A DNA stretch of 64,000 bases from Candidatus Harpocratesius repetitus. Lineage in GTDB: Archaea > Asgardarchaeota > Lokiarchaeia > Sigyniarchaeales > Promethearchaeaceae. The translations under genes were made by a program, and so were the position numbers. The stretch lies in contig JAIZWK010000001.1 in NCBI GenBank assembly GCA_021498095.1, forward strand, positions 2,744,810 through 2,808,809, read 5' to 3'. The notes below the pieces were generated by a model. The model saw only the letters and a list, made by a program, of their open reading frames with translations. It made no database searches and was not told the DNA's origin. Below, piece by piece: positions 3,146-61,119 of the stretch; position 1 is the first letter of the stretch; each line of letters starts with the position of its first letter.

Positions 3146-6100
3146 TTATTCTTTATCATCTAAAATTAAATCATTGAAAACTGCAAAAAATATTTGTCTA
3201 TTTTTTACCGGAGCCATTAACACACTAAGTTTAAATTCTTTTAATCCAATCATTGTTATTATTTCTAATTTTTCTGAATAAATTTGTCCTTTCTTTAATC
3301 CTCTTAATTTCTCTAAAATTTTATCATATGTATTCATTTTTTTTTGTAATAAAGGTTCAAGCTTTCTTGCTCTATTTCTCTCTAGGTTTCTATGAGAAAT
3401 GTTTAATTTTATTTCATCGTTATTCAATTTATTTTGAAATGCCAAATTTGTAAAAAGAAAGTTTAGATTATTTTTAGTTTTAATTTCGAAAATACATATT
3501 GGAATTTCAATATATCTTAATACTTCAATTAAATCACTATATATATCGATTTTTTTGTTTTTGTTTAATGCAAAACCAATTAATATTGCCACATTAAGAG
3601 CTAGTTTTCGTAAATGAGATGTAAATTCAAATGATTTTTGAGTAGATATTATTATTAAATGTCCAGCTATGATGTTATTCTTGAAGATTGGAACTTCAAC
3701 CATCTTTTCAATTCCTAAATGTTCCATAATCGTTCTAGCATCAAGTGGAAAATCCTTTGGCGTTAATGAACGAATAATTTCTGAAGGTCTTTTTTCATGA
3801 GCGATTATTTCAAAGTAATTAACAATAGGCATTTCCAGCAGGCTTAATTCTTGATTATTCTCTGGATTTTTTTGCCATATTTCACGAATTTCAAATGTGA
3901 TATTTCTATAAGAAAAATCTCGTTCTAGAGCATATATATAATCTACCTTAATTGTTTTACCTAAAGTACGAAGAATTGGAGCAATATTCACTCTTGAATG
4001 ATGAGAATCATGAATTAACATAGATGAAATCATAGAAATTACATTAGAGTATTGTAGATTCAATTCTCTATCGCGCAATTCTCTTTCTTTCCTTCGAATT
4101 TCTGTAATATCGCGTGAAACACATAAGAATGAAACGATTTCTCCTTCACTATTAAGTAATGGTCTGGTTTTTGTTTGAAGTAATAAATAAATTCCAGATT
4201 GTTTTCTGAATCTATATTCTATATTTGAGTCATTATTATTACCAGATTTGATTTTTCTAAGGTTTCCCAAGAATAATTCTTTATCGTCAGGATGAATTAA
4301 ATAATGATGATTTAATTGATCAAGAATTTCTTTTGAATAATTTAATTTTTCATAAACGCTATTATTTGCAAATAGAATTTTTCCATTTTCTTTAATAATA
4401 AATATCAAATCATCTGAAGTTTCAACCACATTTCGATATTTAGATTCAGATTCCCTTATTTTTTCTTCATCTTTTTTACGAGCGGTAATATTTCTTGTTA
4501 CTCCTCGAAAACCCTTAAGTTTTCCATCTTGAGTTAAAATACCTACACCATGTGTCTCTAAATAGACAATATTACCGTTTTTATGATAACATTCAAATAT
4601 ATAATTTTGAAATCCGTGATAACCTTGTTGATATAATAAACCTTTATTTATGTGATTGGAAAAATCTTTCCAAATTCTCTTTTTTACTTCAGGTTTAAGA
4701 GAAAGCATATCAAAAGATCTACCAATAAAATAATCTGGAGAATATCCAAGAATTTTATAGCAAGTGGGACTAATATAAACAAAATTTCCATGTATATCAA
4801 TTTCCCAAATAATATCACTGCTACTTTCAACTAAAGCATGAAATTTACGTTCACTTTCAGCCAATTTTATTCGAGCTAATTTTTCTTTAGTAATATCAAC
4901 TTGAGAAATAAACAATAATGGGCCTTTTTCGCTTTCAAATTTTGTTATGGAAATTAGTGCCCAATATGTAGAACCTAAAGCATTTTTAAATTGGATTTCG
5001 TATTTATCAATTCGTTCATTTTTTTCAAGAAGGTCTAAAATTATCTTTCGTTCTTCCATATTTGCATAAAGTGTCCTGGGATCAATATTTTTTACTTCTT
5101 CGCGTGAACATCCAAGTAATTTTAATTGGGTTTCATTTATTTCTAAAATATGTCCATTAAGATCGACAATTGCAATTCCAATTGGTGAATTTTGGAATAA
5201 TTTTTCATATTTAATCTCTGTTTCAGTTAAAATTGCTTGTGTATTTGTCATTGATGTTAAATCTTCTGTAATTACAATGATGTGCTCTATTATTTTTTTG
5301 TCATTATCAGATTGATTAATTAATTTTGATTTATTTGTTTTAAAAACAGGGAAAATGGTTAATTTAAATGATAGAGTTTCATTTAATGAAAGGTTTGGAA
5401 TTAAATTGTGATCCAATTGAATTAAAGGAATTTTTACAATTTCTCCTTTTAATACTTTTTTAACTTTTTCCATTAAACCTAATTTAATTAAGATTCTATC
5501 TTTGAACAAATTTAGTTCAAAATTTTTTTCTTTTAGTTTGTTCTTAAAAAATCTTTTAATAACAGGGTTACATGATTCAAAATACCCATTTCCATCAAAA
5601 ATAGTTGTTCCAAATGGATTAAAATTAATTACATTTTCTAAAATCTGCCTTTCTTGCGATAATTGAATTTCCACAGATTCTCTTTCCAAAGCATTTCCGA
5701 GTAAATCAGTATAGATTTTCAATAAAGTAAAATAATCTTTATTAACAATTTGATTCTCAAATCTAATTAATAGCGTTCCTATAATCATATCTTGATGTCG
5801 AATTGGAAAGAAAACTGAATAAGTTTCATCCATATTTCGGAATATATCTTGAAAAATTATTGGATAAAGTGGGTGATTCTTTGTATAACGAAAAGAAATC
5901 CATTCTTCACGTTGTAAAATTTGAAAAAATGGTGATTTCTTCTTTAAGAAGAATGAAGGATTTCCAATAAATGAGTAGTCATATCCATCTTTGATCCAAT
6001 AATTAATAAGATCTACTTTTATTGAATCAATTGAAAATGAATTTTCGGAATTTTGAATTATATTTTTAATTGTTCTATTTTGATGTTCTTTAAATTCGAA

Positions 6101-7843
6101 AAGCATAATTTCTGAGCATTTAATAAACTCAGAAATATCTGCAAAAGATTCTTCTATTATTCTGGAGATATCATATGATTTAATGAATTTAGCGGAGATT
6201 TCAGCTAATTTTTGTTGAAATTCAAGTCGAAATTTCAATTCTTTTTCAATTTTTCTTCGATTAGTTATATCAATAGCAAATACCATATGAGCAATAGTTT
6301 TTTTTTTCCATTTTATTAATCGAGTAGATAATAGATAATATTTTTGCAAAAATGAATTGTAATGTTCAAAACGAATAGATAAATTTTCAATGAAATGATT
6401 TTCATCCATTTTTGATAATGCAGGAGTTACTTTCTGTTGAAAATCAAATACAATGTCATCAATTGGGCCATAATGAATAGATAAATTTTTTAACTTTTGA
6501 TTAGCAAAAAGAATTTTTTGTTGATTTGGTTGATAAACATAAGTAATTTCAGGAAAACTATCAAAAATAGAAAGTAATTGCTCTCGCTCAAAATCTAATT
6601 CTGCTTTAACTTTAGTTTGTTGTGTTTTATCTTCAAACATGAAAATAATTCTTTCAACCTTCTTTTGATGATTAAATATTGGAAAAGCTATAATTCTTAA
6701 TGACAAATCCCAAAGAGGATATCTATTAAATTGATGTTTTTTCAAATTTAACAAAGGTATTTCTATTGTATTTCCATTAAGTAGACTTTGATATTTTTCT
6801 TCTAAATTATGTTCTTTTATGTTTGAAATATCAAATAGATGAAAATCTGATGGAAGTTGAAATCCAAGAATATTAATTAATGCATTGTTTGATTCGATAA
6901 AATTTCCTTCTTCATCAAAAATGGCAATACCATATGGATTAAGATGAAAGAAATCTTTTTGAGTCTTTGTTTCGATTTCTATACGTTCTTCTAGTTTTTT
7001 TTGATAATCTTCTAATTTTCGAGTGAATTGTAATTGAACTGATATGTCTTCAAATATAATAACAGGATAATACACTTGTTCTTCATTATCATAGAGAGAA
7101 AAAAAAGTAAGATTAAACCATTTTTTATTTAAATTATCTGTAGTTTTCCTTTCTAAATCATTAATTTCAAAATTAAGAGAAACTTTTTTCAAAACAAAAG
7201 AATTTCCCTTTTGAATTTCTCGCATTCCTTCATAAAACCCTTCTTTCTGTAATAATGTTGAATCATCATATAATGAATAGCTCTCAGATGGTTCATGATT
7301 AAAAATTTGATAAAAAGCTTTATTTGCATGTAAAAAATAACCTTTTGGATCAAAAATCGCTATTGCATATGGATTTGACTCAATTATTTTATCAAATAGA
7401 CGCTTATCTTCCAAGAATCGAGAGATTTGAGAAAATGAACGAGATTTAGTTTTGTTTGTATTATTATTTGAATTACTGTGATTCTCAATAATTAATAGAA
7501 ATAACTTTTGTGATGAATTTTGATGAGCTAAAGATAAATGAGCAATAATTGAATATTGTTGCGAAAAAGTATTAATTGTGAGTTCTAAAACCTCACAGTC
7601 TAAAAATTTTTCCTGTTCAATTATACCTTCAATCATATTTATTGATTTTTGCTCTAAAAATTCAAATATTGAGTGTTTTTCTAATTCTTCTGCATTGTAT
7701 TCTAAAAAATTTGCAGTAAAACTATTTACAAAAATGATATCTCCGTGGCTGGAAAAAATCAAGACTGGCTTCTCAATGTACTCAAATATACTTAAATCAA
7801 TAGTATTTAATTTCCAATCTGTCTTTTCCATTCCATAACTCAC
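3146..7843 (-). CDS. Large multi-PAS/GAF sensor protein (1565 aa) with no recognisable kinase or other output domain
   Basis: Repeated PAS-like modules run through the protein (motifs such as NPYGIAIFDxxG and a recurring FxNxAxxxxLGY pattern). The C-terminal ~150 aa look GAF-like. I could not find histidine-kinase H-box or ATPase G-boxes. Confidence 0.55.
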   Translation of the reverse strand: MSYGMEKTDWKLNTIDLSIFEYIEKPVLIFSSHGDIIFVNSFTANFLEYNAEELEKHSIFEFLEQKSINMIEGIIEQEKFLDCEVLELTINTFSQQYSIIAHLSLAHQNSSQKLFLLIIENHSNSNNNTNKTKSRSFSQISRFLEDKRLFDKIIESNPYAIAIFDPKGYFLHANKAFYQIFNHEPSESYSLYDDSTLLQKEGFYEGMREIQKGNSFVLKKVSLNFEINDLERKTTDNLNKKWFNLTFFSLYDNEEQVYYPVIIFEDISVQLQFTRKLEDYQKKLEERIEIETKTQKDFFHLNPYGIAIFDEEGNFIESNNALINILGFQLPSDFHLFDISNIKEHNLEEKYQSLLNGNTIEIPLLNLKKHQFNRYPLWDLSLRIIAFPIFNHQKKVERIIFMFEDKTQQTKVKAELDFEREQLLSIFDSFPEITYVYQPNQQKILFANQKLKNLSIHYGPIDDIVFDFQQKVTPALSKMDENHFIENLSIRFEHYNSFLQKYYLLSTRLIKWKKKTIAHMVFAIDITNRRKIEKELKFRLEFQQKLAEISAKFIKSYDISRIIEESFADISEFIKCSEIMLFEFKEHQNRTIKNIIQNSENSFSIDSIKVDLINYWIKDGYDYSFIGNPSFFLKKKSPFFQILQREEWISFRYTKNHPLYPIIFQDIFRNMDETYSVFFPIRHQDMIIGTLLIRFENQIVNKDYFTLLKIYTDLLGNALERESVEIQLSQERQILENVINFNPFGTTIFDGNGYFESCNPVIKRFFKNKLKEKNFELNLFKDRILIKLGLMEKVKKVLKGEIVKIPLIQLDHNLIPNLSLNETLSFKLTIFPVFKTNKSKLINQSDNDKKIIEHIIVITEDLTSMTNTQAILTETEIKYEKLFQNSPIGIAIVDLNGHILEINETQLKLLGCSREEVKNIDPRTLYANMEERKIILDLLEKNERIDKYEIQFKNALGSTYWALISITKFESEKGPLLFISQVDITKEKLARIKLAESERKFHALVESSSDIIWEIDIHGNFVYISPTCYKILGYSPDYFIGRSFDMLSLKPEVKKRIWKDFSNHINKGLLYQQGYHGFQNYIFECYHKNGNIVYLETHGVGILTQDGKLKGFRGVTRNITARKKDEEKIRESESKYRNVVETSDDLIFIIKENGKILFANNSVYEKLNYSKEILDQLNHHYLIHPDDKELFLGNLRKIKSGNNNDSNIEYRFRKQSGIYLLLQTKTRPLLNSEGEIVSFLCVSRDITEIRRKERELRDRELNLQYSNVISMISSMLIHDSHHSRVNIAPILRTLGKTIKVDYIYALERDFSYRNITFEIREIWQKNPENNQELSLLEMPIVNYFEIIAHEKRPSEIIRSLTPKDFPLDARTIMEHLGIEKMVEVPIFKNNIIAGHLIIISTQKSFEFTSHLRKLALNVAILIGFALNKNKKIDIYSDLIEVLRYIEIPICIFEIKTKNNLNFLFTNLAFQNKLNNDEIKLNISHRNLERNRARKLEPLLQKKMNTYDKILEKLRGLKKGQIYSEKLEIITMIGLKEFKLSVLMAPVKNRQIFFAVFNDLILDDKE

Positions 7844-12019: not shown

Positions 12020-12110
12020 AGAATAATCAACTAAATTTATTTTATTTTATATTAAAAAAACTTGAAAATTTTGAAAATTTAATTAATAAAAAAAGGATTC
12101 AATTAAATGA

Positions 12111-12419
12111 GGGTATTTTAAATTTCAAAGATTCGAATTTTCTCATTTCATCATCTTAATTCTCCCGACTCAAATCTAAAATATCCTTCCTTATTTTTTG
12201 TCGATTTTATCGACGTACCAAATTCAAGGTATGAAAATCAATAATTTTAATAAAATCGACTTCAGATTGAAGAATTTATAAACAGGATGGTATATTTTTA
12301 ACAAATTCTTTGAAAAAATCGAGTTCGACAAAAAAAGAATTGCGATATTTCAAATTTAAGTCGGATATATGTAAATGATATTCAAAAAAGCGTTTAAATT
12401 AAAAAAGATAAAACATCCT
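12111..12419. repeat. Copy A of a ~309-bp noncoding repeat; inverted partner at 54661-54969
   Basis: By manual alignment to the reverse complement of 54661-54969, about 89% of positions are identical with no large indels. There is a perfectly conserved 40-bp core TTGAAAAAATCGAGTTCGACAAAAAAAGAATTGCGATATTTCA. No ORF spans it. Confidence 0.8.
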
Positions 12420-12456
12420 CAAATAAATAATTCAATTTTTATTTTGATTAAAAGAA

Positions 12457-28416: not shown

Positions 28417-29814
28417 ATGAGGTTTGAAAATATGACTTCAATGTCTACATCATCACTATCAATTGTTTCTTTTATTGGAATTCCATTATATCTTATCAAT
28501 TATGTTATTTCTTCATACTCACGAACACTTAGATGGCTGATATCGGCTCATCAAGTTTTAAAAGTATTATATCTAATTTCATTTTATATAGTTTCTACTG
28601 TCTCAATAATTTATTTAATTATGGGTATTATTGCATATTTTAAGCCAAAAATAGTTAGTAGATCATTGCCTTATGGTGATGAACCTTTTGTTACAATCCA
28701 AATACCCACATATAACGAATTGGCAGCAATTAATTGTGCTCGATGTTGCTTAAATTTTGATTATCCTCGTGATAAAATGCAAATTATAATTGGTGATGAT
28801 AGTAATGATCCATCAATTTCTGCCCAGATTGATGAATTTGCAGCAAAATATCCTGAAATTATAATGGTTACTAGAAGAGGTAATAATATTGGCTTTAAAC
28901 CTGGAAATTTAAATCATATGTTGAAATATACTAAAGGAGAATTTATTGCAATTTTTGATTCAGATTTTCTTCCACCTCGTGATTTTCTCCGTAAAGCAAT
29001 GCAACCTTTTCAAGGAAATCCCGATCTTGCTGCAGTTCAAGCTCGATGGCATATTACAAATTTATCACAAAATGTTTTCAGTCTATTAGGCGGTATAACT
29101 TCTTATGTTACGCACCATATTGCGATTCCGTTTATGCAAAAAATAGGAGGTAGCGCCTTTTTATGCGGTTCTGCTCATGTTACACGAAAATCACACATTG
29201 AAATGATTGGAAATTGGCGTGTTGGTGCATTAACTGAAGACATTGAAGCAAGTTTAGAATTAATAAAACGAGGCAAAAGAATAACTTATTTAGAGGATGT
29301 TTTAGTTGATTGTGAAGCACCTTTTACTTTCAAAGATCTTCTTTTACAACAAAAACGTTGGGCATCAGGAAATATAACAGCATTTAAGAGGAATTTATTG
29401 AATGTATGGAAATCAAAGAAAATTACACTTAAAGAAAAAATAAGTGCATCTATTTTCAGTACCGGATATATCTATCCTTATTTCTTACTTTTTCTAAGTA
29501 TATGGGGTATTATTTCTCAAATTATTCCCAATCCAATCTCACCACCATTTAATTTATTAGCATTTATTCTAAGTACTATTGGTTCAATATTGTTGACTAG
29601 TGGTGCGTTAATCTCAAGTTCTATGGTTCTTATTAAAAAGAAACAAGGTAGATTAATCCCTAAATTAATAGGTGGCACTCTAACTGTAGGAATGGGTTTA
29701 TTAATTTATGTTAATATAGGTATTTATAGTGGACTTTTTAATCGAAAAATCCCATGGTACATGGTTCAAAAAAATGGTAATTCCTTAGTATCTTCTTCCG
29801 AGGTATCAAAATAA
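28417..29814 (+). CDS. Processive family-2 glycosyltransferase (cellulose/chitin-synthase-like)
   Basis: It has an N-terminal TM, DDS and DSD motifs, a Q-x-x-R-W motif (QQKRWASG) and C-terminal TM helices. Confidence 0.7.
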   Translation: MRFENMTSMSTSSLSIVSFIGIPLYLINYVISSYSRTLRWLISAHQVLKVLYLISFYIVSTVSIIYLIMGIIAYFKPKIVSRSLPYGDEPFVTIQIPTYNELAAINCARCCLNFDYPRDKMQIIIGDDSNDPSISAQIDEFAAKYPEIIMVTRRGNNIGFKPGNLNHMLKYTKGEFIAIFDSDFLPPRDFLRKAMQPFQGNPDLAAVQARWHITNLSQNVFSLLGGITSYVTHHIAIPFMQKIGGSAFLCGSAHVTRKSHIEMIGNWRVGALTEDIEASLELIKRGKRITYLEDVLVDCEAPFTFKDLLLQQKRWASGNITAFKRNLLNVWKSKKITLKEKISASIFSTGYIYPYFLLFLSIWGIISQIIPNPISPPFNLLAFILSTIGSILLTSGALISSSMVLIKKKQGRLIPKLIGGTLTVGMGLLIYVNIGIYSGLFNRKIPWYMVQKNGNSLVSSSEVSK

Positions 29815-42861: not shown

Positions 42862-45800
42862 ATGGCTGAATTTAAATTTCCCCGGTGGAAACCATTCACA
42901 TTTATAGATTCAAACCCGCCAATATTCTATCCAAGTTTTATTAATGAATTACTCCAAAAATGTGATAATTTTTCCCATACATCAGATATAGAAACGTTAT
43001 TTTGGCAGATTCTCACTTTAAAATATCTCAAATTATTAAAAACTAGTGAATTCGAAAATTATTATCAAACATTAATTAAATATGAAGTTACAGAAAATGA
43101 TAAATCGGGTTTTTTAAATCCTCAATTGAAATACTCAAAGAAAAAGAAGAATACAACTTTTTCGATTACTGATTCAGATATCTTAAGTACATATTACATC
43201 TTAAATATATTCGCCTTAACAGGAAAATTAACGGAATATTTAGCAACTTTGAATGGAAATCGGAAAAAATATTTGGAAAATTATATTTTAGATTTACAAT
43301 TTCATTTAAAAAAGAATAGTCGGAAATCTCAAGCAGAAATTCTCTTTTACATTACTACACTATATCTATTATTAGGAAATTCTCCACGGACGATTCAGCA
43401 CCAAGTAATACAGCAAATAAAGCCAAGTATCAAGCAATCTAAAGGACCGAATACTGTTTTTAAATTACTTTTATTTCGATTTTTTAATATGCAAGATCCT
43501 TTGAAAGAAAGCGATTTGATTTCATTACACCAACTTCAAAAAACAAATGGTGGTTTTAATTTTAAAAATTCAACTATTGCAGATCCATCGAATACTTTTT
43601 GGATCGTTTTCACCTTAGAAACTTATAGTTGGTTTTTACCCTATCGTCCAGGACCAATATATTCATATCTTTTATCTTTTCTTCGACATGAATATCAACA
43701 TACACAAAATGATTCACAATATCTTTTCTCTAAGAATACTATTAAGTCTATTTTTCAATTAATAGTCTTGTATGCATGTATTTTCGATTCTCTATTGAAT
43801 GATGTAGAAAACTTAATTTTTACTAATATATCTAAGAAAGGGATGTTAAATGCAGACAAACTTTCGAATGAAGGAGGATTTGCAGGAGCAGAGAATGAAA
43901 TTATCTCTTTATTAAATCAAAAATTTCAATTTAAATTAGAAATATTAGATAATAACATAGTATTTCGGCGATATTTAAATCGTTTAAATCCATTTAAAGA
44001 AAAATTGGCTGTTCAAATTAGGAAAGAAATAAGAAATTCTCTGCAATTCGATATTAATGAATTTGTAAAAAATTATAACCGGACAAAAAGTCGAACAAAT
44101 CGAATTAAAGTTGAATTTATATGTGATTTAATCCAAGAAATGGAACAAGAATTTTTCTTTACAGGAAGTCTTAAATCTCGTAATCGTTTTTTCTTTTTCC
44201 ATTCCTATTTATATATTCGGGAAAATTTCATCGAAAAAATCATTGTATGTGACAAACAACTGAATTGGCAAGATATTCAACATGAAAAAAAACGGATGGA
44301 AGAAATCCTTATAGACATATTCAATATGATAAATGAGATTAAAGAGGCAAAAACCCGAATTTTAAATGATATTGAATCTATGATTTTGGTTGGAATGAAT
44401 CCCGAAAAAATTGAAGAACATATGAAATTTTTAATCAAAAATACCCTGATTGATGCTACATTTTTCCGAAAAACAATTGAAACTTTTACTAGTGAATTTG
44501 TTTATTTAAATCCAAATTATGCTCTTAATTCACGAATTAAAGAGTGGGAACTCCTATATTCAAATCTTCAATCAGATTTTCGAAATATTAGAAAAATACT
44601 AAATATAAAATTAGACAACTTAAAAGATGAAATTCAACAAAGAGACTTTCTCTTTTCTTTAGAAAAGGAAATAAATACATGCATAAACCAAATTACTGAA
44701 AATGCAATAAACTTTGAAGAAAATTTCCGACAAACATTTGACCAAGAATATCATCGAAAATTAATAGATCAACTAAAAGAACAATTGAAACTAACAAAAG
44801 ATAATTTAAATATGCTTGATAAACGGATTAAAAATCGATCTTTGAGAATTACAAGTAAAAAAACAAAAATCACTCAAATGCGTAATAAACTAATTAATAA
44901 GTGGATTTCGCATAAACAAGATATTACTCAATTACTTGCTTTTTATCAAGAAGGCTTTGATTATTGGGATAAATCTCTATCAAAATTTGAATTATTACAA
45001 AGTAGTTTTCTTCAAAGAATTAATAAAGTTGAAAAAGAAATCAAAAAAGAAATATCTAAAAATGATTATTCAGTCGCATTTGAAATGAATAGAAGAAAAT
45101 TTGCTGAAATTTTTAATGATATGAATTTATTAACCAATAATTTTGAAAAGGAATTTAATAAAAAACGCAAAGGAGCGCGTAAATTAAATCCTTTATATCA
45201 AGCACTGATAACAGAGTGGAATTCGCTTCAATATTCACTAGAAGCCCTAATTCAACAAAAGAAGCGTTCGTTCCAAAAATCTATTACTATGGATCAAATT
45301 TCTTTTCATACCGAGAATTTTCAACTTATTGTAGAATCCCAAATCACCATTCTGAATCAAAAGCTTATTGAATTCAAAAAAAGATTTTCATCCCTTATTA
45401 AACATGATGAAAACATATCCCAATATAATTATAATCATGAAGCTGAAAAATTAAAAAAGGATTTTTTAAAAATACAAGCTCAAATAAAAGATGAATACAA
45501 TAAAATTAAAAAACTCAAATTAAATATAGATTTATCTCTATCTCTTAAGCAATTTCAAGAATTTGAACAGCATTTTAATCATGAAATTCAAGAAATAATT
45601 GATCATTATAATCGAAAAGAAAAAATTCGAAAAATTCTTAAATATGCTGAAGATAAAAATCAAAACTTGTTTGAAATTGCTGAGATCGCTCAAATATTAA
45701 AAATGAGCATATCTGAAACAGATTCATTGCTAAAACAATTAGTATCTCAAAATTTACTTAACGCACGAATATATAATAAAACAAGAAAAATTGAAATACA

Positions 45801-47277
45801 CAATAAGAATTGGAGAAATTATCTCAAACTAAAACAAGAAAGCGAAATTCGTTGTCGGGAATTACAAGCAAAAGTAAATTTAATTCAAAATTATTTTAAT
45901 AAAGCAGTAATCAATCATGAATTTTTGGAAAAAAGCGACCAGCTCGATACACTTATTGAAGAGTTTAATGAATATATAGAAACCAAATCTAATGAATTTG
46001 AAACTTTTATACAAGATAATCAAATAAATACGAAAAACAATCTGATATATGAAGAATACTTGCAATTCTATCAAAAAATAAATAAGATGAAAGAACAAGT
46101 AAACTCACTACAGAATACAACAAATCAAGCAAAAGAATTTGAACAAATACTTAAGGATTTTACTTCACGTTTAGAAGATTTTGGAAATTCAATAATTAAT
46201 AAAATTGAGCAGGAATTTCAAACTACATCAAAATTATCGCATAAAAATCATACAAAATACTTGCAAAATCAATGGAGTTTTATTCAAAATTTCTTAGATG
46301 ATATTCTTTTACAAGAAAAAACCCGTAGAAAAGAAATTTTTCAAAAAAACGGAAATTTTGGAGAAATTTTCTTTGATATTGAAGATGATTTTAAAAATAG
46401 AATTCAAAATATCATGCAAGATTTTAAGACAACTTTCCAAAATTATGAAGAAGAATTAAAAATAAATGAAATAAAAAACCTTCGCCAAAAAATGGACGAA
46501 ATTGTTATCGAAAAGCAAAACCTTGTTGGACAAAATCAAAGAAAAATTGATTTAGAAATAAAAAATAAAATTAGAGCAAAAGAATATATCATAGCAGCCA
46601 AAAAATTAAATCAACGAGCAAAAAGTCTATATAAAATATTGAAAAATGCTGAAAAAGAAATAAAATTAGCAAACAAAGAGTTTAATGCAAAATCAAAAGT
46701 ATTTGGTATAAAATACTCACCATATATATTAGAAGAATGGACAAACTTTCAAAAACAATTTGAAGAATCAGTAATTTCTACTTTAAATAAAGTATATGCA
46801 AGAGAACTTGTGTTAAACTTTACTTTTTTCTCGATAAAATCCTTTAAAGAGCCTTTTGTCCCATTAAAACTTATAGCTGAAAACCTATTTTTAAGCCATG
46901 ATCAAGTACAACATATTCTTATGAGTCTAATAAGCGAAGGAATGCTTTCAGGAAAAATTGATTTAGAACATGATGTTTATTTTGAAGGAACAATAAGTTT
47001 TGATGATAAAAGTATTGCTCGATTAGAAATTATAAAGAAAACAAATGTTAAAACATATTTAAGAATCAGGCGTTTGGTGAATGTATTTGCAATTCTCGGT
47101 CCGATTTTAACAGGATTTGCTTCTTTCTTAACAATATTATGGTATTTGATCCGTTTAGCCACAAATTTAGTCTTCATCGCAATTCCTATTGCAGTTCTTA
47201 TAATATTGTTTATTTATCTATGGATTCGAAAAGGAAGGGAACAATTTGCTCAACTAGAACCAGAATCGAGTGAATAG
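42862..47277 (+). CDS. Giant (1471 aa) protein: N-terminal prenyltransferase-like alpha/alpha repeat region, ~1100-aa coiled-coil, C-terminal TM tail-anchor
   Basis: N-terminal repeats of the type DIETLFWQILTL, SDILSTYYILNIFALTG, AEILFYITTLYLLLG and LQKTNGGFNF. There are long K/E/N/Q-rich heptad-like segments. A final hydrophobic stretch (ILGPILTGFASFLTILWYLIRLATNLVFIAIPIAVLIILFIYLWI) precedes a short tail. Confidence 0.55.
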   Translation: MAEFKFPRWKPFTFIDSNPPIFYPSFINELLQKCDNFSHTSDIETLFWQILTLKYLKLLKTSEFENYYQTLIKYEVTENDKSGFLNPQLKYSKKKKNTTFSITDSDILSTYYILNIFALTGKLTEYLATLNGNRKKYLENYILDLQFHLKKNSRKSQAEILFYITTLYLLLGNSPRTIQHQVIQQIKPSIKQSKGPNTVFKLLLFRFFNMQDPLKESDLISLHQLQKTNGGFNFKNSTIADPSNTFWIVFTLETYSWFLPYRPGPIYSYLLSFLRHEYQHTQNDSQYLFSKNTIKSIFQLIVLYACIFDSLLNDVENLIFTNISKKGMLNADKLSNEGGFAGAENEIISLLNQKFQFKLEILDNNIVFRRYLNRLNPFKEKLAVQIRKEIRNSLQFDINEFVKNYNRTKSRTNRIKVEFICDLIQEMEQEFFFTGSLKSRNRFFFFHSYLYIRENFIEKIIVCDKQLNWQDIQHEKKRMEEILIDIFNMINEIKEAKTRILNDIESMILVGMNPEKIEEHMKFLIKNTLIDATFFRKTIETFTSEFVYLNPNYALNSRIKEWELLYSNLQSDFRNIRKILNIKLDNLKDEIQQRDFLFSLEKEINTCINQITENAINFEENFRQTFDQEYHRKLIDQLKEQLKLTKDNLNMLDKRIKNRSLRITSKKTKITQMRNKLINKWISHKQDITQLLAFYQEGFDYWDKSLSKFELLQSSFLQRINKVEKEIKKEISKNDYSVAFEMNRRKFAEIFNDMNLLTNNFEKEFNKKRKGARKLNPLYQALITEWNSLQYSLEALIQQKKRSFQKSITMDQISFHTENFQLIVESQITILNQKLIEFKKRFSSLIKHDENISQYNYNHEAEKLKKDFLKIQAQIKDEYNKIKKLKLNIDLSLSLKQFQEFEQHFNHEIQEIIDHYNRKEKIRKILKYAEDKNQNLFEIAEIAQILKMSISETDSLLKQLVSQNLLNARIYNKTRKIEIHNKNWRNYLKLKQESEIRCRELQAKVNLIQNYFNKAVINHEFLEKSDQLDTLIEEFNEYIETKSNEFETFIQDNQINTKNNLIYEEYLQFYQKINKMKEQVNSLQNTTNQAKEFEQILKDFTSRLEDFGNSIINKIEQEFQTTSKLSHKNHTKYLQNQWSFIQNFLDDILLQEKTRRKEIFQKNGNFGEIFFDIEDDFKNRIQNIMQDFKTTFQNYEEELKINEIKNLRQKMDEIVIEKQNLVGQNQRKIDLEIKNKIRAKEYIIAAKKLNQRAKSLYKILKNAEKEIKLANKEFNAKSKVFGIKYSPYILEEWTNFQKQFEESVISTLNKVYARELVLNFTFFSIKSFKEPFVPLKLIAENLFLSHDQVQHILMSLISEGMLSGKIDLEHDVYFEGTISFDDKSIARLEIIKKTNVKTYLRIRRLVNVFAILGPILTGFASFLTILWYLIRLATNLVFIAIPIAVLIILFIYLWIRKGREQFAQLEPESSE

Positions 47278-49530: not shown

Positions 49531-49862
49531 AAATTGCTCATATAACTTATTTTCATAAAGAATATCTTAGAAAATCTAAAGAACGAACAGTTTTTAAAAG
49601 AATTGAGCCTATAGAATTTTTTAATTTTAAGTCAAATTTAGTAACCCCTTATAAATCAGTCGAAATTGGGAAAAATAGAATATACAAAAAATGAATTCCT
49701 ATATTTTTAAAGCACATGGTATAGTGGTTATTATAATTGATTTCCGTTCAAGATGTCTCCTGTTCAAACCAAAATGCATTTTTTAAAGAATCTGTAAATA
49801 CAGTTATAGATTCATTTGGAACTTCTTTAAATGCAACCCAACAATCATCACTGGTAGCAGAA

Positions 49863-50813
49863 TTACATTATCAATTCATAACCGCTTTTCAATTTAAACT
49901 TAGGCCGAAAGTTTTTTGCCCACCTTATATATTCTTCTCGCAGTTCTTTTTCTGGAATTTGCTCCGCAGCAATTAACGCATAGTCCATAAATTTAATCCG
50001 CTCTGCGGTCCACGTAGTTTCAAACCCGTATTCTTCAAAAAATAGCTTCTCCCACTCCTTATAACGCTCGATATTCTCCTGCTTTCGGGGATGGATGAAC
50101 GAATCAAAATCATACATAAATTCTTCGCTGTTTTCAAACTGGGTGCAGTCCCAGAACTCAATCGGTAGAAAGGAAATATGAGGTATGCGAGGAAGATTTG
50201 AAATGTTAATCCATAATTCAGGATTATGGGTGAATTCAATCGGAATCTCCTTAACTTCGCGCAAACTCCATAATTCCAATTTTTCTAATGAAATGCTGAA
50301 TGCCCAATTGATGGGAACCTGCTTCATGCGGTGTTTTCCATCATTTTTGGGCGGCAGCGTTATTTTTTCACCATCGAACATATTTTCATAACGCTCATTA
50401 TAAAAATCTTCACCGATTGAAATTTCCCGCAGGCGATAGCAGTGGGCGAAATCTATGTTGTAATCGTCTAAAACCGCAGCAGTAGTTTCAAATTTTTGCA
50501 AATATTGATATTGATCGCACTTTAGTGGAATTTTGATATTCGAAAATCTAGAAATGCGAATATATTCTATTTTCGGCGGCCATTTAACCACCCGCAGCTG
50601 ATTTTCTCCAGATATTACAATTTCTCTGCAGTTGATGAAGGCGGAAAAATCTGCTTCGTTATTGGGAAATATGCAGCTATATGCTTCTAATTTATATACT
50701 TTATCAACATCTTTCCAATTTTTAACATCAAAATCCTGCCTAACCAGTGTTAATACTAATTTATCATTATAAACATGGCTGTATCTCACATATTTTGGAT
50801 TTTCATTATGCAT
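49863..50813 (-). CDS. Hypothetical protein (possible LRR-like repeats), in GC-elevated island
   Basis: 316 aa. Its codon composition is notably GC-richer than neighbouring genes, and LEKLELWSLREVKEIPIEF...ISNLPRIPHISFLPIEF is LRR-like. Confidence 0.45.
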   Translation of the reverse strand: MHNENPKYVRYSHVYNDKLVLTLVRQDFDVKNWKDVDKVYKLEAYSCIFPNNEADFSAFINCREIVISGENQLRVVKWPPKIEYIRISRFSNIKIPLKCDQYQYLQKFETTAAVLDDYNIDFAHCYRLREISIGEDFYNERYENMFDGEKITLPPKNDGKHRMKQVPINWAFSISLEKLELWSLREVKEIPIEFTHNPELWINISNLPRIPHISFLPIEFWDCTQFENSEEFMYDFDSFIHPRKQENIERYKEWEKLFFEEYGFETTWTAERIKFMDYALIAAEQIPEKELREEYIRWAKNFRPKFKLKSGYELIM

Positions 50814-50919
50814 AATGCTTCATCCACTTTTTTTTTCCATTTACTTTTATTTTCTTATCCAATGTATATAAAAAAAAACGATATTAAAAAATTAACCCCC
50901 TCTTCGGCGAACTTATTTT

Positions 50920-53049
50920 TTATCCGATAAATCCCTCAATCGCATCCAAATATGCATCAAAATTATTCATGGCACTTTCATCCGCATACTCTTCGTAGTA
51001 TAAGCGCATCTCATTTTTGTATTTCAGATAGTATGCGAAACACTGCTTCAGCATCAGTAACTGCGAATTTGAATTGAAGATACTCACGGGATTTTCAATC
51101 TGAGCGTACCATTGGTCGAGTCGGGAGTCAAATTGAATGTTGCCGTTCTCATCCAAAGTGGGAACGAAGTATTCGATTGATTTATCTTTACTTATCTTAA
51201 TTGTTATGGTTTCACCTTTAACGCCGAATGCCTTGATGATGCCTTCAATTCGGTTCCATGTGGCAATGTATGCATTTCTATTACTACCATGGCTTGATTC
51301 CATCATCAACTTAATATCGTTGTAAAACCTTTTCTTTTTTAAATTTGAATCTTTCAAATCCTGCTCGGATGAATGCAGCGTATACTGTTCGTAAACCCAC
51401 CTTGCCAGCATGGATACGGAGTCTCGGATGCTGGAGCCTTGAAATTGTGCAAGATTGCGGAGGTTGAAAAAGGCACGACCGTCTTCAAGTTCAATCAGCA
51501 CCATTTTAGTGGCATCTCCACCAATTTTTTCTCCCATCATTTCAGTAAATTTATCCATACCTTTATGATTTTCAAATATGTTTATCATGGATAAGCCGTT
51601 CTGGAAGGTAGTCCACACCTTGCGCGATTTTTCTGTATAATATTCGATATTAGTATCTTCTACTCCGTGCATTCCCACGCCGTAAATACCGGGATACCGC
51701 CAATTAACCGCACTGCCGTCCGCTCCAATTAGGTTCAGCATATTCTCAAATACCAGAAAATCCATAACGAAGCGCTCAATCCCATTATTTATTTTGGGTT
51801 CGTTGGTTTTATAATATTCTTCATTCACCGGGTCCCACAAATCCATGGAAAACTGTGGAATTATCATGGAATAGGGCGAAGGTGTGGTAGGGACAATGTC
51901 TTTAACGGCATCTGAAATCGGGGTGCCGAGTTGGAAGAATTTAATTTTGTGTTCTTCATCATTTTGAATTTGACCGACCATACTTCCGAAAACCAACACT
52001 TCTCTTCCCGAACCGATCATTTCACTTTTAGCCATTCCGAATTGTATGAAATTTGCAATAAATGCATTTTTTTTGGCACCTATTATTATGATTGGGTCGG
52101 GGAGGGCGCTGGGGGGCACATAGTAGTGATGATCATCGACTACTTTTTCGCTGAGATAGTTTTTAACTCTATCTTGATCTGGAGATTCTAATTTATTTTG
52201 AACAAGATAATCGATAGTTGAGCGAAATGCTTCGATATTGGTAAAAAGGGATGCCAAAGAAATCCAAGCTGCCTGCATCAGCTCCCATTCGTGAATTTGG
52301 GATGAAGAAAGCAAAGAACCAATACTATACAATTTTGATTCTTTAATAAATTGTAAATATTCGCTGTATCCAAGTCTTTTCTGCAAAAACTGGGTCAAAT
52401 AATCAGCAGCACCTCCAGGATTAACTGCAATTTTCTTATCTGTAAAACCTCCTGCATCTTGGGAAATTTCACTGATTTTATATAAAATATATTCAATTTG
52501 ATTAATTACTCCATTATTCCATCTTAATGTATGATCCTTTTTTTTACGGACAGTCCGCCAGTATTTATGAGTCTTATCCGCGTCAAACAATTCTTTTATT
52601 TCGCTGATATATTGTAAATCATCTAAGGACTCATCGAAAAAGTGCTCTCTTAATTCTGTGCCGGCGCCGGGAAGGTCTTTATCCAAAGCGTTAAAATCAA
52701 AAAATAAGTCTCTAAGCTGCTCTGCAATATCGGGAACATTCTTATAAATATTTTTTAATGTGCTTCTAATGATTTGTAAACCAAATTTATAATTCCATGC
52801 ATTTGCGTTTTTTCCATTTTTATAATATTTTCTTATACCAGCTATATGGTTTTTTGCAATTTTTTGAAAAGCAAATGAAAGCAGCCGAATTTCAAATATT
52901 CCTTTCCGCCAATTTATATTAGTATATAAAGGAGTTGATTCACCCTCTAAGCTTTTTGCACTTTCCACCTTATTATTTATCAAAATACGAACTGTTTGAG
53001 ATTTTGGATATTCAAGTTGTATACGATTGCATAGGTAAAAATGATTCAA
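50920..53049 (-). CDS. Hypothetical 709-aa protein, in GC-elevated island
   Basis: It is a long, clean ORF with no motif I can assign. Local GC is about 43-45% versus about 30% elsewhere. Confidence 0.45.
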   Translation of the reverse strand: MNHFYLCNRIQLEYPKSQTVRILINNKVESAKSLEGESTPLYTNINWRKGIFEIRLLSFAFQKIAKNHIAGIRKYYKNGKNANAWNYKFGLQIIRSTLKNIYKNVPDIAEQLRDLFFDFNALDKDLPGAGTELREHFFDESLDDLQYISEIKELFDADKTHKYWRTVRKKKDHTLRWNNGVINQIEYILYKISEISQDAGGFTDKKIAVNPGGAADYLTQFLQKRLGYSEYLQFIKESKLYSIGSLLSSSQIHEWELMQAAWISLASLFTNIEAFRSTIDYLVQNKLESPDQDRVKNYLSEKVVDDHHYYVPPSALPDPIIIIGAKKNAFIANFIQFGMAKSEMIGSGREVLVFGSMVGQIQNDEEHKIKFFQLGTPISDAVKDIVPTTPSPYSMIIPQFSMDLWDPVNEEYYKTNEPKINNGIERFVMDFLVFENMLNLIGADGSAVNWRYPGIYGVGMHGVEDTNIEYYTEKSRKVWTTFQNGLSMINIFENHKGMDKFTEMMGEKIGGDATKMVLIELEDGRAFFNLRNLAQFQGSSIRDSVSMLARWVYEQYTLHSSEQDLKDSNLKKKRFYNDIKLMMESSHGSNRNAYIATWNRIEGIIKAFGVKGETITIKISKDKSIEYFVPTLDENGNIQFDSRLDQWYAQIENPVSIFNSNSQLLMLKQCFAYYLKYKNEMRLYYEEYADESAMNNFDAYLDAIEGFIG

Positions 53050-53237
53050 AATTCTTAACTAAATTAAAGATGAGTTGTTATTTTCAAAGATTAAATTTTG
53101 ATTTGTCTATTTCTTTTTCCAGTTATATTACAAAAAGATCATAATGTTAAATATTTACGATGATAAAACATATAATTATTAAGAATCACATAAATATTTT
53201 TTATTATTTATGAATAATTTGAAGGAGAAACTAAAAA

Positions 53238-53516
53238 ATGAACGATCAAATACCTCCAGCAACAAATGAAAAATGGCAAGCTCTAATTCTTGGACTAGAT
53301 TACAAAAATTTTGAGTTCTTTCCTGTAAAATTGCTTTTAGCTAGATTGCAATTGAAAGTAAAACAAGATCCAAGCGAAGAAAATGTTTTACAATGTTCTA
53401 AAGAATTAAGACAATTATTTGTGAAAAATCAGCACATTCCTAAAGCGAAAAGGGATCTAGATAAAATTTTCAAAAAGAAATTTAATTTCAAAAGATTTTT
53501 AAGAAGGAGAAGATAA
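53238..53516 (+). CDS. Small hypothetical protein with basic C-terminus
   Basis: 92 aa ending FLRRRR. Its 3' end runs into the tandem repeat. Confidence 0.3.
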   Translation: MNDQIPPATNEKWQALILGLDYKNFEFFPVKLLLARLQLKVKQDPSEENVLQCSKELRQLFVKNQHIPKAKRDLDKIFKKKFNFKRFLRRRR

Positions 53517-53612
53517 AGAAAAAGAAGATAAAGAAGGAGAAGATAAAGAAAAAGAAGATAAAGAAGGAGAAGATAAAGAAAAAGAAGATAAAGAAGGAGA
53601 AGATAAAAAATG
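53505..53612. repeat. 30-bp tandem repeat (AAAGAAGATAAAGAAGGAGAAGATAAAGAA) x about 3.6, with a 15-bp sub-period
   Basis: Seen directly. Each unit contains an AGGAG Shine-Dalgarno-like core. The array ends at the ATG of the 53610 gene. Confidence 0.85.
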
Positions 53613-54632: not shown

Positions 54633-54660
54633 GTAATTCTGAATTCAGACTTTAAAATTG

Positions 54661-54969
54661 AGGATATTTTATTTTTTTTAATTTAAACGCTTTTTTGAAT
54701 ATCAATTATATATATCCGACTTAATTCTGAAATATCGCAATTCTTTTTTTGTCGAACTCGATTTTTTCAAAAAATTTATTAAAAATTTACCATAATGTTT
54801 ATAAATTCTTCAATTTGATGTTGACTTTATCATAATTTTTGAATTACATATCTTGAATTTGGCAACTTAGTAAAATCGACAAAAAATAAGGAAGGATATA
54901 TTAGAATTGAGTCGGAAGAATTAAAATGATATAATGAAAAAATTCGAATTTTTGAAATTTAAAATACCC
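54661..54969. repeat. Copy B of the ~309-bp noncoding repeat, inverted relative to 12111-12419
   Basis: Its reverse complement aligns to 12111-12419 at about 89% identity, with an identical 40-bp core. Confidence 0.8.
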
Positions 54970-55004
54970 TTAATTTAAAATTTAAAATTTAGAATTTAGA
55001 AGAA

Positions 55005-60078: not shown

Positions 60079-61119
60079 TCATTCAACTAATATCTCATCT
60101 GATGATGATTGATTCTGCCCTTCTATTTTGTGTATCAGCGATAAATCATCCCATTTTCCACATTTACTCCCCCATCTCGCGAGTAATTGATTATTTTTGA
60201 ATATTTCAACAATCTCACAAACATTCGGACAATCGGAGCATTCAAAACCTGTTGTTCGAAATCTTAACTGTGGAATATTCCACCCAAGAAATTTTGATGG
60301 ACGAGGTTTCCTTTCTATCTCTTCATGAGCTAAAATAGCCGCTCCTATAGCACCCATAACATCATAATATGGTGGAACAATAATCTTATATCCGAGATTC
60401 TCAGCAAATGCTTTTCTAATTCCTTTATTAGCAGCTACCCCACCTTGAAACATTATTGGAGGAAGGATTTCTTTACCTTTAGCTACATTATTAAGATAAT
60501 TGCGAACCAAAGCTTCACATAATCCGCGAATAATATCTTGCTCTGGATATCCAAGCTGCTGTTTATGAATCATATCACTTTCCGCAAATACCGTACAGCG
60601 ACCAGCTATAGATACTGGATTTGTAGATTTTAATGCATAATCCCCAAATTCTTCAATCGGAATTTTAATTCGTCGAGCTTGTTGATCTAAGAAACTTCCT
60701 GTTCCTGCTGCACATACTGTATTCATTGCAAAATCAATAGCTACACCATCCCGTAAAATAATTATTTTGCTGTCTTGACCCCCAATTTCCAATACTGTTC
60801 TAACATCTGGTTTAAATTCTAAAGCAGCTAAAGAATGTGCTGTGATTTCATTTTTTACAATATCTGCACCAATTAAAACACCAGTCAATTGTCTTGCTGA
60901 ACCAGTAGCTCCAGCACCATGTATAGGAAGGTCACATCCAAGTTTATTGCGCATGATTCTGATTGCATTTTGAACAGCTTGTATTGGTTTTCCATCAGTT
61001 CTAATATATACAGATTCAATTACTTTATGATTTTCATCTATTACTGCAACATTGGTTGAAATTGAGCCAACATCAACTCCAATAAAATAATTTTGCTCAT
61101 CCGATTTCATTTTTTTCAC
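60079..61119 (-). CDS. BadF/BadG/BcrA/BcrD-type ATPase (HgdC-like activase of 2-hydroxyacyl-CoA dehydratases)
   Basis: It has an N-terminal acetate/sugar-kinase-fold motif (FIGVDVGSISTNVAVID) and is collinear with HgdC/YjiL-type activases. A C-terminal Cys cluster (CSDCPNVCE...CGKW) is present. Confidence 0.8.
   Translation of the reverse strand: MKKMKSDEQNYFIGVDVGSISTNVAVIDENHKVIESVYIRTDGKPIQAVQNAIRIMRNKLGCDLPIHGAGATGSARQLTGVLIGADIVKNEITAHSLAALEFKPDVRTVLEIGGQDSKIIILRDGVAIDFAMNTVCAAGTGSFLDQQARRIKIPIEEFGDYALKSTNPVSIAGRCTVFAESDMIHKQQLGYPEQDIIRGLCEALVRNYLNNVAKGKEILPPIMFQGGVAANKGIRKAFAENLGYKIIVPPYYDVMGAIGAAILAHEEIERKPRPSKFLGWNIPQLRFRTTGFECSDCPNVCEIVEIFKNNQLLARWGSKCGKWDDLSLIHKIEGQNQSSSDEILVE

Follow-up and report, generated by a model that had tools for sequence, protein, structure and literature searches.

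What are two compositionally unusual genes doing next to a Hef-type helicase gene in the genome of Candidatus Harpocratesius repetitus (Lokiarchaeia)? The genes lie side by side on the minus strand in a stretch of 64,000 nucleotides that we analysed as a whole (the window; contig JAIZWK010000001.1, positions 2,744,810 to 2,808,809, assembly GCA_021498095.1). A preliminary description of the window, made from the sequence alone, had read them as a horizontally acquired island and as a candidate defence system that includes the helicase. Both open reading frames (ORFs) are present where that description placed them (709 and 316 aa; Table 1), and the large protein matches K9W44_11780 of this organism at 100% identity. 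We found that the pair is a dispersed repeat, present at about 14 loci of the genome, and that a sister species lacks the window copy at the orthologous site. The window pair is probably a 5′-truncated representative of a two-gene cassette that moves or duplicates itself and is endemic to Harpocratesius.

The copies in the same genome are numerous and similar to each other. The large protein has eight further paralogues at 79–90% identity (983, 951, 910, 884, 592, 489, 453 and 451 aa), and the small protein has 11 further paralogues at 83–97% identity. These make up the approximately 14 loci: eight pairs of a large and a small gene, five fragments with the small gene only and one locus with the large gene only. 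The eight pairs, as judged from the adjacency of K9W44 locus tags, are 01260/65, 05540/45, 06530/35, 09580/85, 11775/80 (the window pair), 13770/75, 13825/30 and 17535/30. A second subfamily occupies three more loci in the same genome (43% identical, 474 aa), and a third is found in a sister metagenome-assembled genome (MAG), Ca. Harpocratesius sp. GCA_054039255, whose relatives of the large protein are fragments and one partial protein of at least 1092 aa (39% identity). Lokiarchaeum ossiferum has a single-copy relative of 995 aa (25% identity), and one further relative is a 916-aa protein on a 3.4-kb contig. A HMMER search against 1.84 billion cluster representatives returned nine proteins at E ≤ 1e-3; the named ones all belong to Harpocratesius or L. 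ossiferum, and one of the nine (P0020) is a repetitive protein with a weak and local match. No relatives were found in scans of the GTDB representative genomes and JGI metagenomes. The family is undescribed, and its detectable relatives are confined to a few Lokiarchaeia.

Members of the large-protein family range from about 950 to more than 1240 aa, with the conserved core in roughly the last 450 aa. Distant members can be aligned over almost their full length, and the sister protein is 251 residues longer than the longest H. repetitus paralogue; the ancestral large protein therefore had about 1000–1250 aa. The unit pairs this large protein, whose N-terminal part varies and whose core of about 450 aa is conserved, with a 316-aa protein that resembles leucine-rich repeat (LRR) proteins and is encoded on the same strand about 100 bp further on. 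The pairing is old, and its linkage spans subfamilies: at the sister locus L007, a fragment of the core is followed by a 228-aa ORF in which the N-terminal domain of the small protein is present twice (31–35% identity).

Comparison with the sister MAG places the window copy precisely. Gene order at the sister locus L002 matches that of the window from 40.7 to 64 kb (RsmB-like methyltransferase, CBS protein, 1471-aa protein, Hef helicase, 92/102-aa protein, DUF6976, 208-aa protein and DAO oxidoreductase), and the two sequences share 86–94% nucleotide identity (blastn and local alignments). Collinearity ends at position 49636 of the window (9178 of L002) and restarts at position 53126 (9598 of L002); a segment of 3489 bp with both genes in the window corresponds to 419 unrelated bp in the sister. 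The window copy is thus missing from the orthologous site, and the window locus is clearly not a conserved syntenic core. Inside the segment, the spacer between the two genes has no similarity to any locus compared, and the 226 bp past the small gene contain an open frame of 37 codons without any tblastx match. The 419 bp of the sister carry two copies of a 15-nt motif, GTGCGAATAAGTTTT (L002 9196–9262), a small sister-specific repeat that is also present at the sister locus L001 (854–868) and nowhere in the window.

The codon usage of both genes is foreign to their host. GC content at third codon positions (GC3) is 0.363 for the large gene (z = 5.6) and 0.379 for the small gene (z = 6.1), as compared with 0.190 ± 0.031 for the 38 other ORFs of the window (range 0.13–0.27, maximum 0.272), and the codon-usage log-likelihoods deviate too (z = −5.3 and −4.9, respectively). 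The codons that had been noted as frequent at first sight (CGG, GCG and CCG) are enriched 2.4–4 times in the pair. The total GC content had been put at 43–45% for the island and about 30% for the rest of the window; the second figure agrees with the computed window mean of 29.7%, but the first is too high, as the large and small genes have 36.9% and 36.6%, and 41–43% is reached only in the highest 300-bp windows. Several ordinary genes of the window also have 35–38%, so total GC alone fails to single out the pair. In each of the two genes GC3 rises from about 0.2 to about 0.5 toward the 3′ end. Raised GC3 is likewise seen in the 5′-truncated copies of the sister genome (0.34–0.47 versus 0.19–0.24); the single L. 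ossiferum homologue has the same composition as its host. With a deviating GC3 and a pair that is not syntenic in the sister, vertically inherited core genes are excluded. As for horizontal acquisition, foreign composition and absence from the sister site fit an acquisition or insertion here, but a loss in the sister is equally possible.

Every copy keeps its 3′ end, whereas the 5′ ends vary. All alignments reach the C-terminus, and they start at residues 1, 33, 61, 275, 383, 383, 450, 495 and 530 of the large protein, at residues 18, 75, 184, 233 and 233 for the fragments with the small gene only, and at residues 547 and 752 for the sister copies. In the window, homology to the paralogues begins at position 53010, equivalent to residue 275 in P0003, the paralogue with 983 aa; the window copy is without the first ~274 codons of the large gene, and this missing part has no match further upstream in the window.

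Two of the three sister copies are close to tRNA genes. The copy at L006 ends 97 bp from a tRNA gene that was called by ARAGORN but not by Rfam (perhaps owing to an intron) and whose acceptor stem and T-arm pair perfectly, and the copy at L007 starts 360 bp downstream of a tRNA-Val gene (63 bits). These are the sole tRNA genes of their loci, and the joint chance of such proximity is estimated at ∼1e-3. In the window, a decayed tRNA-like sequence lies within the inserted segment, at a distance of 80 bp from the small gene's stop codon and with its 3′ end toward the genes. It matches the Rfam tRNA model with 24.4 bits (gathering threshold 29; the E-value is 0.075 over 4.4 kb and 0.005 over 301 bp) and was not called by ARAGORN. 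This sequence and the tRNA-Val of L007 share blocks of 15 nt in the D-arm and 13 nt in the T-arm, with the same spacing of 21 nt. There is no tRNA at the sister site L002, and no copy of the tRNA-like sequence at the other end of the insert.

Neither protein can be assigned to a known family, as had been anticipated: Pfam, NCBIfam, PHROGs, PADLOC and PDB sequence profiles gave nothing for both of them (weak matches to WH1, TerD, V-ATPase and phrog_37096 were treated as noise). About 35 positions are invariant in the core of the large protein across members that are only 23–40% identical, including the motifs EW, IG, QxG, GxxGxGxHG, Y...K and SxIN and several D, E, N, K and Y residues. This pattern of conservation would suit an enzyme or a tightly packed binding domain; no recognised catalytic signature could be mapped onto the invariant positions. 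The AlphaFold2 (AF2) model of the large protein is unusable, with a predicted local distance difference test (pLDDT) score of 41, because its shallow alignment holds only near-identical paralogues.

The small protein had been described as having LRR-like segments, and this part of the description holds weakly. LxxLxL-type segments occur within residues 60–225, and the AF2 model (overall pLDDT 49) has a β-rich repeat that reaches a pLDDT of 70–89 at residues 10–110 only. The best 50 Foldseek matches of this model in the PDB are all LRR proteins, with weak E-values of 4e-3 to 0.2. The Pfam thresholds were not reached: the window protein has no Pfam LRR match, and its sister homologue matches LRR_4 with 24.1 bits (cut-off 27). 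The models thus weakly support an LRR-like fold for the N-terminal two-thirds of the small protein; its C-terminal part is predicted, with low confidence, to be helical.

The small gene is under purifying selection. Between the window copy and a copy on an ENA contig (L009), synonymous divergence (dS) is 0.34 and nonsynonymous divergence (dN) is 0.04; the resulting dN/dS of 0.115 indicates that the gene is functional. Host orthologues between the two species have dN/dS values of 0.04–0.17, and the sister paralogues 0.33–0.38. The large gene keeps a 709-codon ORF uninterrupted within a genome of 30% GC. The ENA contig (ERZ2433807, NODE_268111) is itself unusual: it is 1.4 kb long with 1.9x coverage, and in its positions 1–492 a RuvA-like HhH gene with a GC content of about 44% runs directly into codon 55 of the small-gene copy, so that it may be a chimeric assembly or a cassette copy in a different genomic background.

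What could have spread the pair? No transposase, integrase, reverse transcriptase (RT) or HUH domain was found in the 3.5-kb segment with Pfam, NCBIfam and PHROGs, and neither ORF has a signature of a DDE transposase, a serine or tyrosine recombinase, or an RVT or other polymerase, even at permissive thresholds. The region contains no group II intron or other structured RNA besides the sub-threshold tRNA match, and there is no poly-A or other tail at the junctions. Target-site duplications (TSDs), terminal inverted repeats (TIRs) and direct repeats of the attachment-site (att) type are likewise missing at the 49637 and 53125 junctions, where we saw only AT-rich chance repeats; in contrast, an unrelated 321-bp repeat in the same window does show TIRs and a duplication of about 10 bp.

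At the sister locus L001, a 437-aa homologue of IS6/IS240-like transposases (weak, 24.8 bits in Pfam and 30.7 in NCBIfam) is encoded in divergent orientation, with 83 bp between it and the start of P0022, the longest sister copy; its GC3 is raised to a similar extent (0.29). We considered this gene as the transposase of the family and rejected it, as it is absent from all other loci seen; it is probably independent. Integrase partitioning of the SSV type was also considered as the source of the truncated ORFs beside tRNAs, and rejected: the ORFs are truncated at different points, and neither a fold nor a motif of a recombinase can be detected.

The pair resembles several kinds of selfish or mobile cassettes and has the defining features of none. 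Like the orphan cassettes of Rhs proteins and polymorphic toxins, it is multi-copy and compositionally distinct, and the 5′-truncated remainder of a large gene precedes a small partner on the same strand; in those cassettes there is recombination between copies and the small partner is a specific binder, as is proposed here. However, the most conserved parts here are the C-terminus and the partner (84–97% identity) and the variable part is the N-terminus; the copies are dispersed round the chromosome, not stacked behind a full-length gene; and no Rhs/YD, toxin or immunity domain was found in either protein. SSV-type and pNOB8-type elements integrate at archaeal tRNA genes, where they leave decayed remnants and can lead to 'gene capture'. 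The pair is similar to such integrative elements in its foreign composition, its possible position on the 3′ side of tRNAs, its presence or absence between relatives and its progressive truncation, but lacks a detectable integrase (or integrase fragment) and att direct repeats; moreover, random decay of different elements does not explain why the same two genes survive at about 14 sites. The TRE elements of Dictyostelium are non-long-terminal-repeat (non-LTR) retrotransposons that target tRNA genes. The likeness to these is one of pattern only (nested copies sharing the 3′ end, two ORFs, a distance of about 100 bp from tRNA genes), since here no RT, endonuclease, A-rich tail or TSD was found and the tRNA-like sequence is inside the insert. 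Finally, the aloposons of Heimdallarchaeum, transposons that encode proteins of about 5000 aa, are also Asgard repeats with very large ORFs of unknown function and make up several per cent of a genome (PMC8813620); no sequence similarity between them and the Harpocratesius pair was detected, and no transposase was found here.

It is probable, in our judgement, that the window pair is a truncated copy of a cassette that moves or duplicates itself. The unit might most plausibly be the att-proximal end, or the cargo, of integrative elements associated with tRNA genes. It would have multiplied by duplicative insertion with its 3′ end as the anchor, the copies later swapping sequence through gene conversion. 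The LRR-like protein could be a specific binding partner of the large-protein core, acting as a regulator, an inhibitor or a targeting subunit.

A number of observations weigh against this reading. The mobility domains, and the TSDs, TIRs and att-type repeats at the junctions, are missing as described above. The sister site is not cleanly empty, since it has 419 unrelated bp, and a loss there is as possible as a gain here. The 3′-anchoring was seen at the DNA level for the window, L006 and L007 only, the other H. repetitus copies being known from ORF calls, and some of the apparent truncations are frameshifted genes (e.g. 13775 and 13780, or 01265 and 01270), at least two of the short proteins being parts of such genes. 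The association with tRNAs is based on three loci, of which the window one is below the Rfam threshold. Scans of IMG/VR gave no related loci for either protein, and the family was thus not found on viral contigs. And purifying selection on many copies is also compatible with a multigene family that benefits the host.

The last point leads to the main alternative, which we consider unlikely but deserving of a full comparison: the pair could be a host multigene family (a conflict, toxin–antidote or sensor–effector module) that has expanded by ectopic or segmental duplication and been homogenised through GC-biased gene conversion, with no dedicated mobility machinery. Conversion would then have raised GC3 as a side effect, and the high values would be no sign of foreign origin. 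Two observations are better explained in this way than by a cassette. One is that GC3 along both genes is correlated with the identity between paralogues (Spearman ρ = 0.76, p = 0.0015). The other is that the similarity of the window copy to the L009 copy breaks off precisely where the small gene ends, at its stop codon: the next 118 bp are no better than shuffled sequence, even though a neutral divergence of 0.34 would predict about 70% identity past the stop, and such a boundary is expected if similarity is kept only within the coding sequence. A host family would also agree with the low dN/dS (0.115), with the lack of a transposase, TIR or TSD, and with the 474-aa 'core-only' form of the three second-subfamily copies, according to which short forms may be real proteins. 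On the other hand, the three subfamilies share only about 40% identity in two hosts with about 90% identity to each other, and a different subfamily has expanded in each genome; repeated invasion would fit this better than vertical descent. The locus is occupied in one species and not in its sister, copies adjoin tRNA genes and, to our knowledge, GC-biased conversion has not been demonstrated in archaea.

A bolder alternative, to which we give rather less credence, goes further than a cassette carried by other elements: the pair would be an autonomous element of a new class, whose ~1000–1250-aa protein would be a transposition enzyme of a new kind, starting each copy of the unit at the 3′ end. 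Aborted copying would generate the 5′ truncations, and the LRR-like partner would steer insertion to the 3′ flanks of tRNA genes; the element could then be a functional analogue, in prokaryotes, of the eukaryotic tRNA-targeting (non-LTR) retroelements, active in the archaeal lineage closest to eukaryotes. A nested set of copies that share the 3′ end and are 5′-truncated to different extents, as seen at about 14 loci and in two genomes, is what such copying predicts, and the tRNA genes 97 and 360 bp from two sister copies, the tRNA relic 80 bp from the window copy, the ∼35 invariant core residues (GxxGxGxHG and SxIN among them) and the combination of multi-copy expansion with purifying selection all point in the same direction. 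Opposed to this are the lack of any RT, DDE, HUH or recombinase signature at permissive thresholds, the lack of a tail and of a TSD, the position of the tRNA relic inside the insert with no tRNA at the sister site, and the L. ossiferum homologue, which is single-copy and compositionally native.

The reading that drew attention to this locus, namely that the large protein, its small partner and a Hef/FANCM-like superfamily 2 (SF2) helicase together form a so far undescribed defence system of three genes, is not supported, and we regard it as very improbable. The three genes are adjacent on one strand, LRR-type sensors are plausible immune components, and the helicase gives generic SF2 matches to helicase models of PADLOC (PbeA, Cas3 and DrmD). 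But the helicase (734 aa; DEAD, ResIII and Helicase_C domains) has its best match by far in the 'Hef nuclease' model NF010337, with 488 bits (cut-off 610), as compared with at most 64 bits for any other NCBIfam model. Pfam and NCBIfam detect no ERCC4 nuclease domain in it, in line with its original description as a Hef-type helicase without nuclease. It has a host-typical GC3 of 0.174 and sits at the same position between the same neighbours in the sister, which lacks both genes, with a dS of 0.28 and a dN/dS of 0.12, like those neighbours. Sister synteny contradicts the defence reading, and the Hef helicase is an unrelated, vertically inherited gene outside the two-gene unit. None of the three sister copies at L001, L006 and L007 has a helicase beside it, PADLOC has no match for either protein at E ≤ 0.1, and a presence at about 14 loci of one genome is unlike the behaviour of defence systems.

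An assembly artefact or contaminant DNA stitched into the scaffold has next to no probability: the composition is atypical, the source MAG (a Canu assembly of nanopore reads with short-read polishing) is scaffolded and has gaps, and the L009 contig with its 44% GC RuvA-like gene at 1.9x coverage may itself be chimeric, but relatives of both genes occur in ordinary Harpocratesius context in the independently assembled sister MAG, the sequence beyond both junctions is collinear with the sister, and the family is restricted to Lokiarchaeia.

Table 1. Features of the window and of one sister locus (positions are those of the window unless a sister locus is named)
Feature	Positions	Strand	Remarks
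Large ORF	50920–53049	−	709 aa from a TTG start; called at 682 aa by NCBI (K9W44_11780)
Small ORF	49863–50813	−	316 aa, K9W44_11775
Spacer between large and small ORF	50814–50919	−	106 bp
Window-specific segment	49637–53125		3489 bp; not in the collinear sister locus L002
Decayed tRNA-like sequence	49710–49782	+	33% GC; imperfect acceptor and T stems; anticodon-loop UCC
MITE-like repeat, first copy	54658–54978		321 bp
MITE-like repeat, second copy	12103–12422		inverted relative to the first; 88% identical
Second window-specific segment	60118–61549		about 1.4 kb; relative to the sister
BcrAD/BadFG-family ATPase gene	60079–61119		in the second window-specific segment
Purine-rich tandem repeat	53490–53610		units of 15/30 nt
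Tandem paralogue 1	28417–29814		465 aa
Tandem paralogue 2	29835–31202		455 aa
Very large AT-rich ORF	42862–47277	+	1471 aa
Very large AT-rich ORF	3146–7843	−	1565 aa
IS6/IS240-like transposase homologue	L001 8604–9917	−	437 aa

Other parts of the window also differ from the sister or are repeated (Table 1). The 321-bp repeat mentioned above resembles a miniature inverted-repeat transposable element (MITE) and has imperfect 13-nt TIRs (TGAGGRTATTTTA). The corresponding stretch of the window (54633–54950) is missing from L002, and about 10 bp (L002 11014–11023) align on both sides of it, which suggests that the flanks are a TSD; L010, a Logan contig assembled from the same sample, also breaks off at the repeat. 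The BcrAD/BadFG-family ATPase gene of the second window-specific segment has a host-like GC3 and is also present in L010. The purine-rich tandem repeat (GAAGGAGAAGATAAAGAAAAA) lies directly upstream of the start of the DUF6976 gene and is apparently about 45 bp longer in the window than in the sister. The two tandem paralogues share 67% nucleotide identity. The two very large AT-rich ORFs have GC contents of 25–26%; the 1471-aa protein is conserved in the sister (dN/dS 0.08) and has no significant family match (a PADLOC match at E = 0.043 is noise).

Ca. H. repetitus was named after its 4% repetitive DNA (Wu et al., PMC8813620). The same paper records 4% repeats for FW102 and leaves both the repeats themselves and this gene family undescribed. 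The Harpocratesius pair is a visible share of these 'repetitus' repeats. The link to a Hef-associated defence system was a false lead that is now removed, and compositional islands in this genome should be checked first against its own repeat families. If the pair is a self-propagating cassette, it would represent a new route of the duplication-driven genome growth of Asgard archaea, which is discussed as a eukaryote-like trait; and if the large protein is a mobility enzyme, it would represent a new enzyme class.

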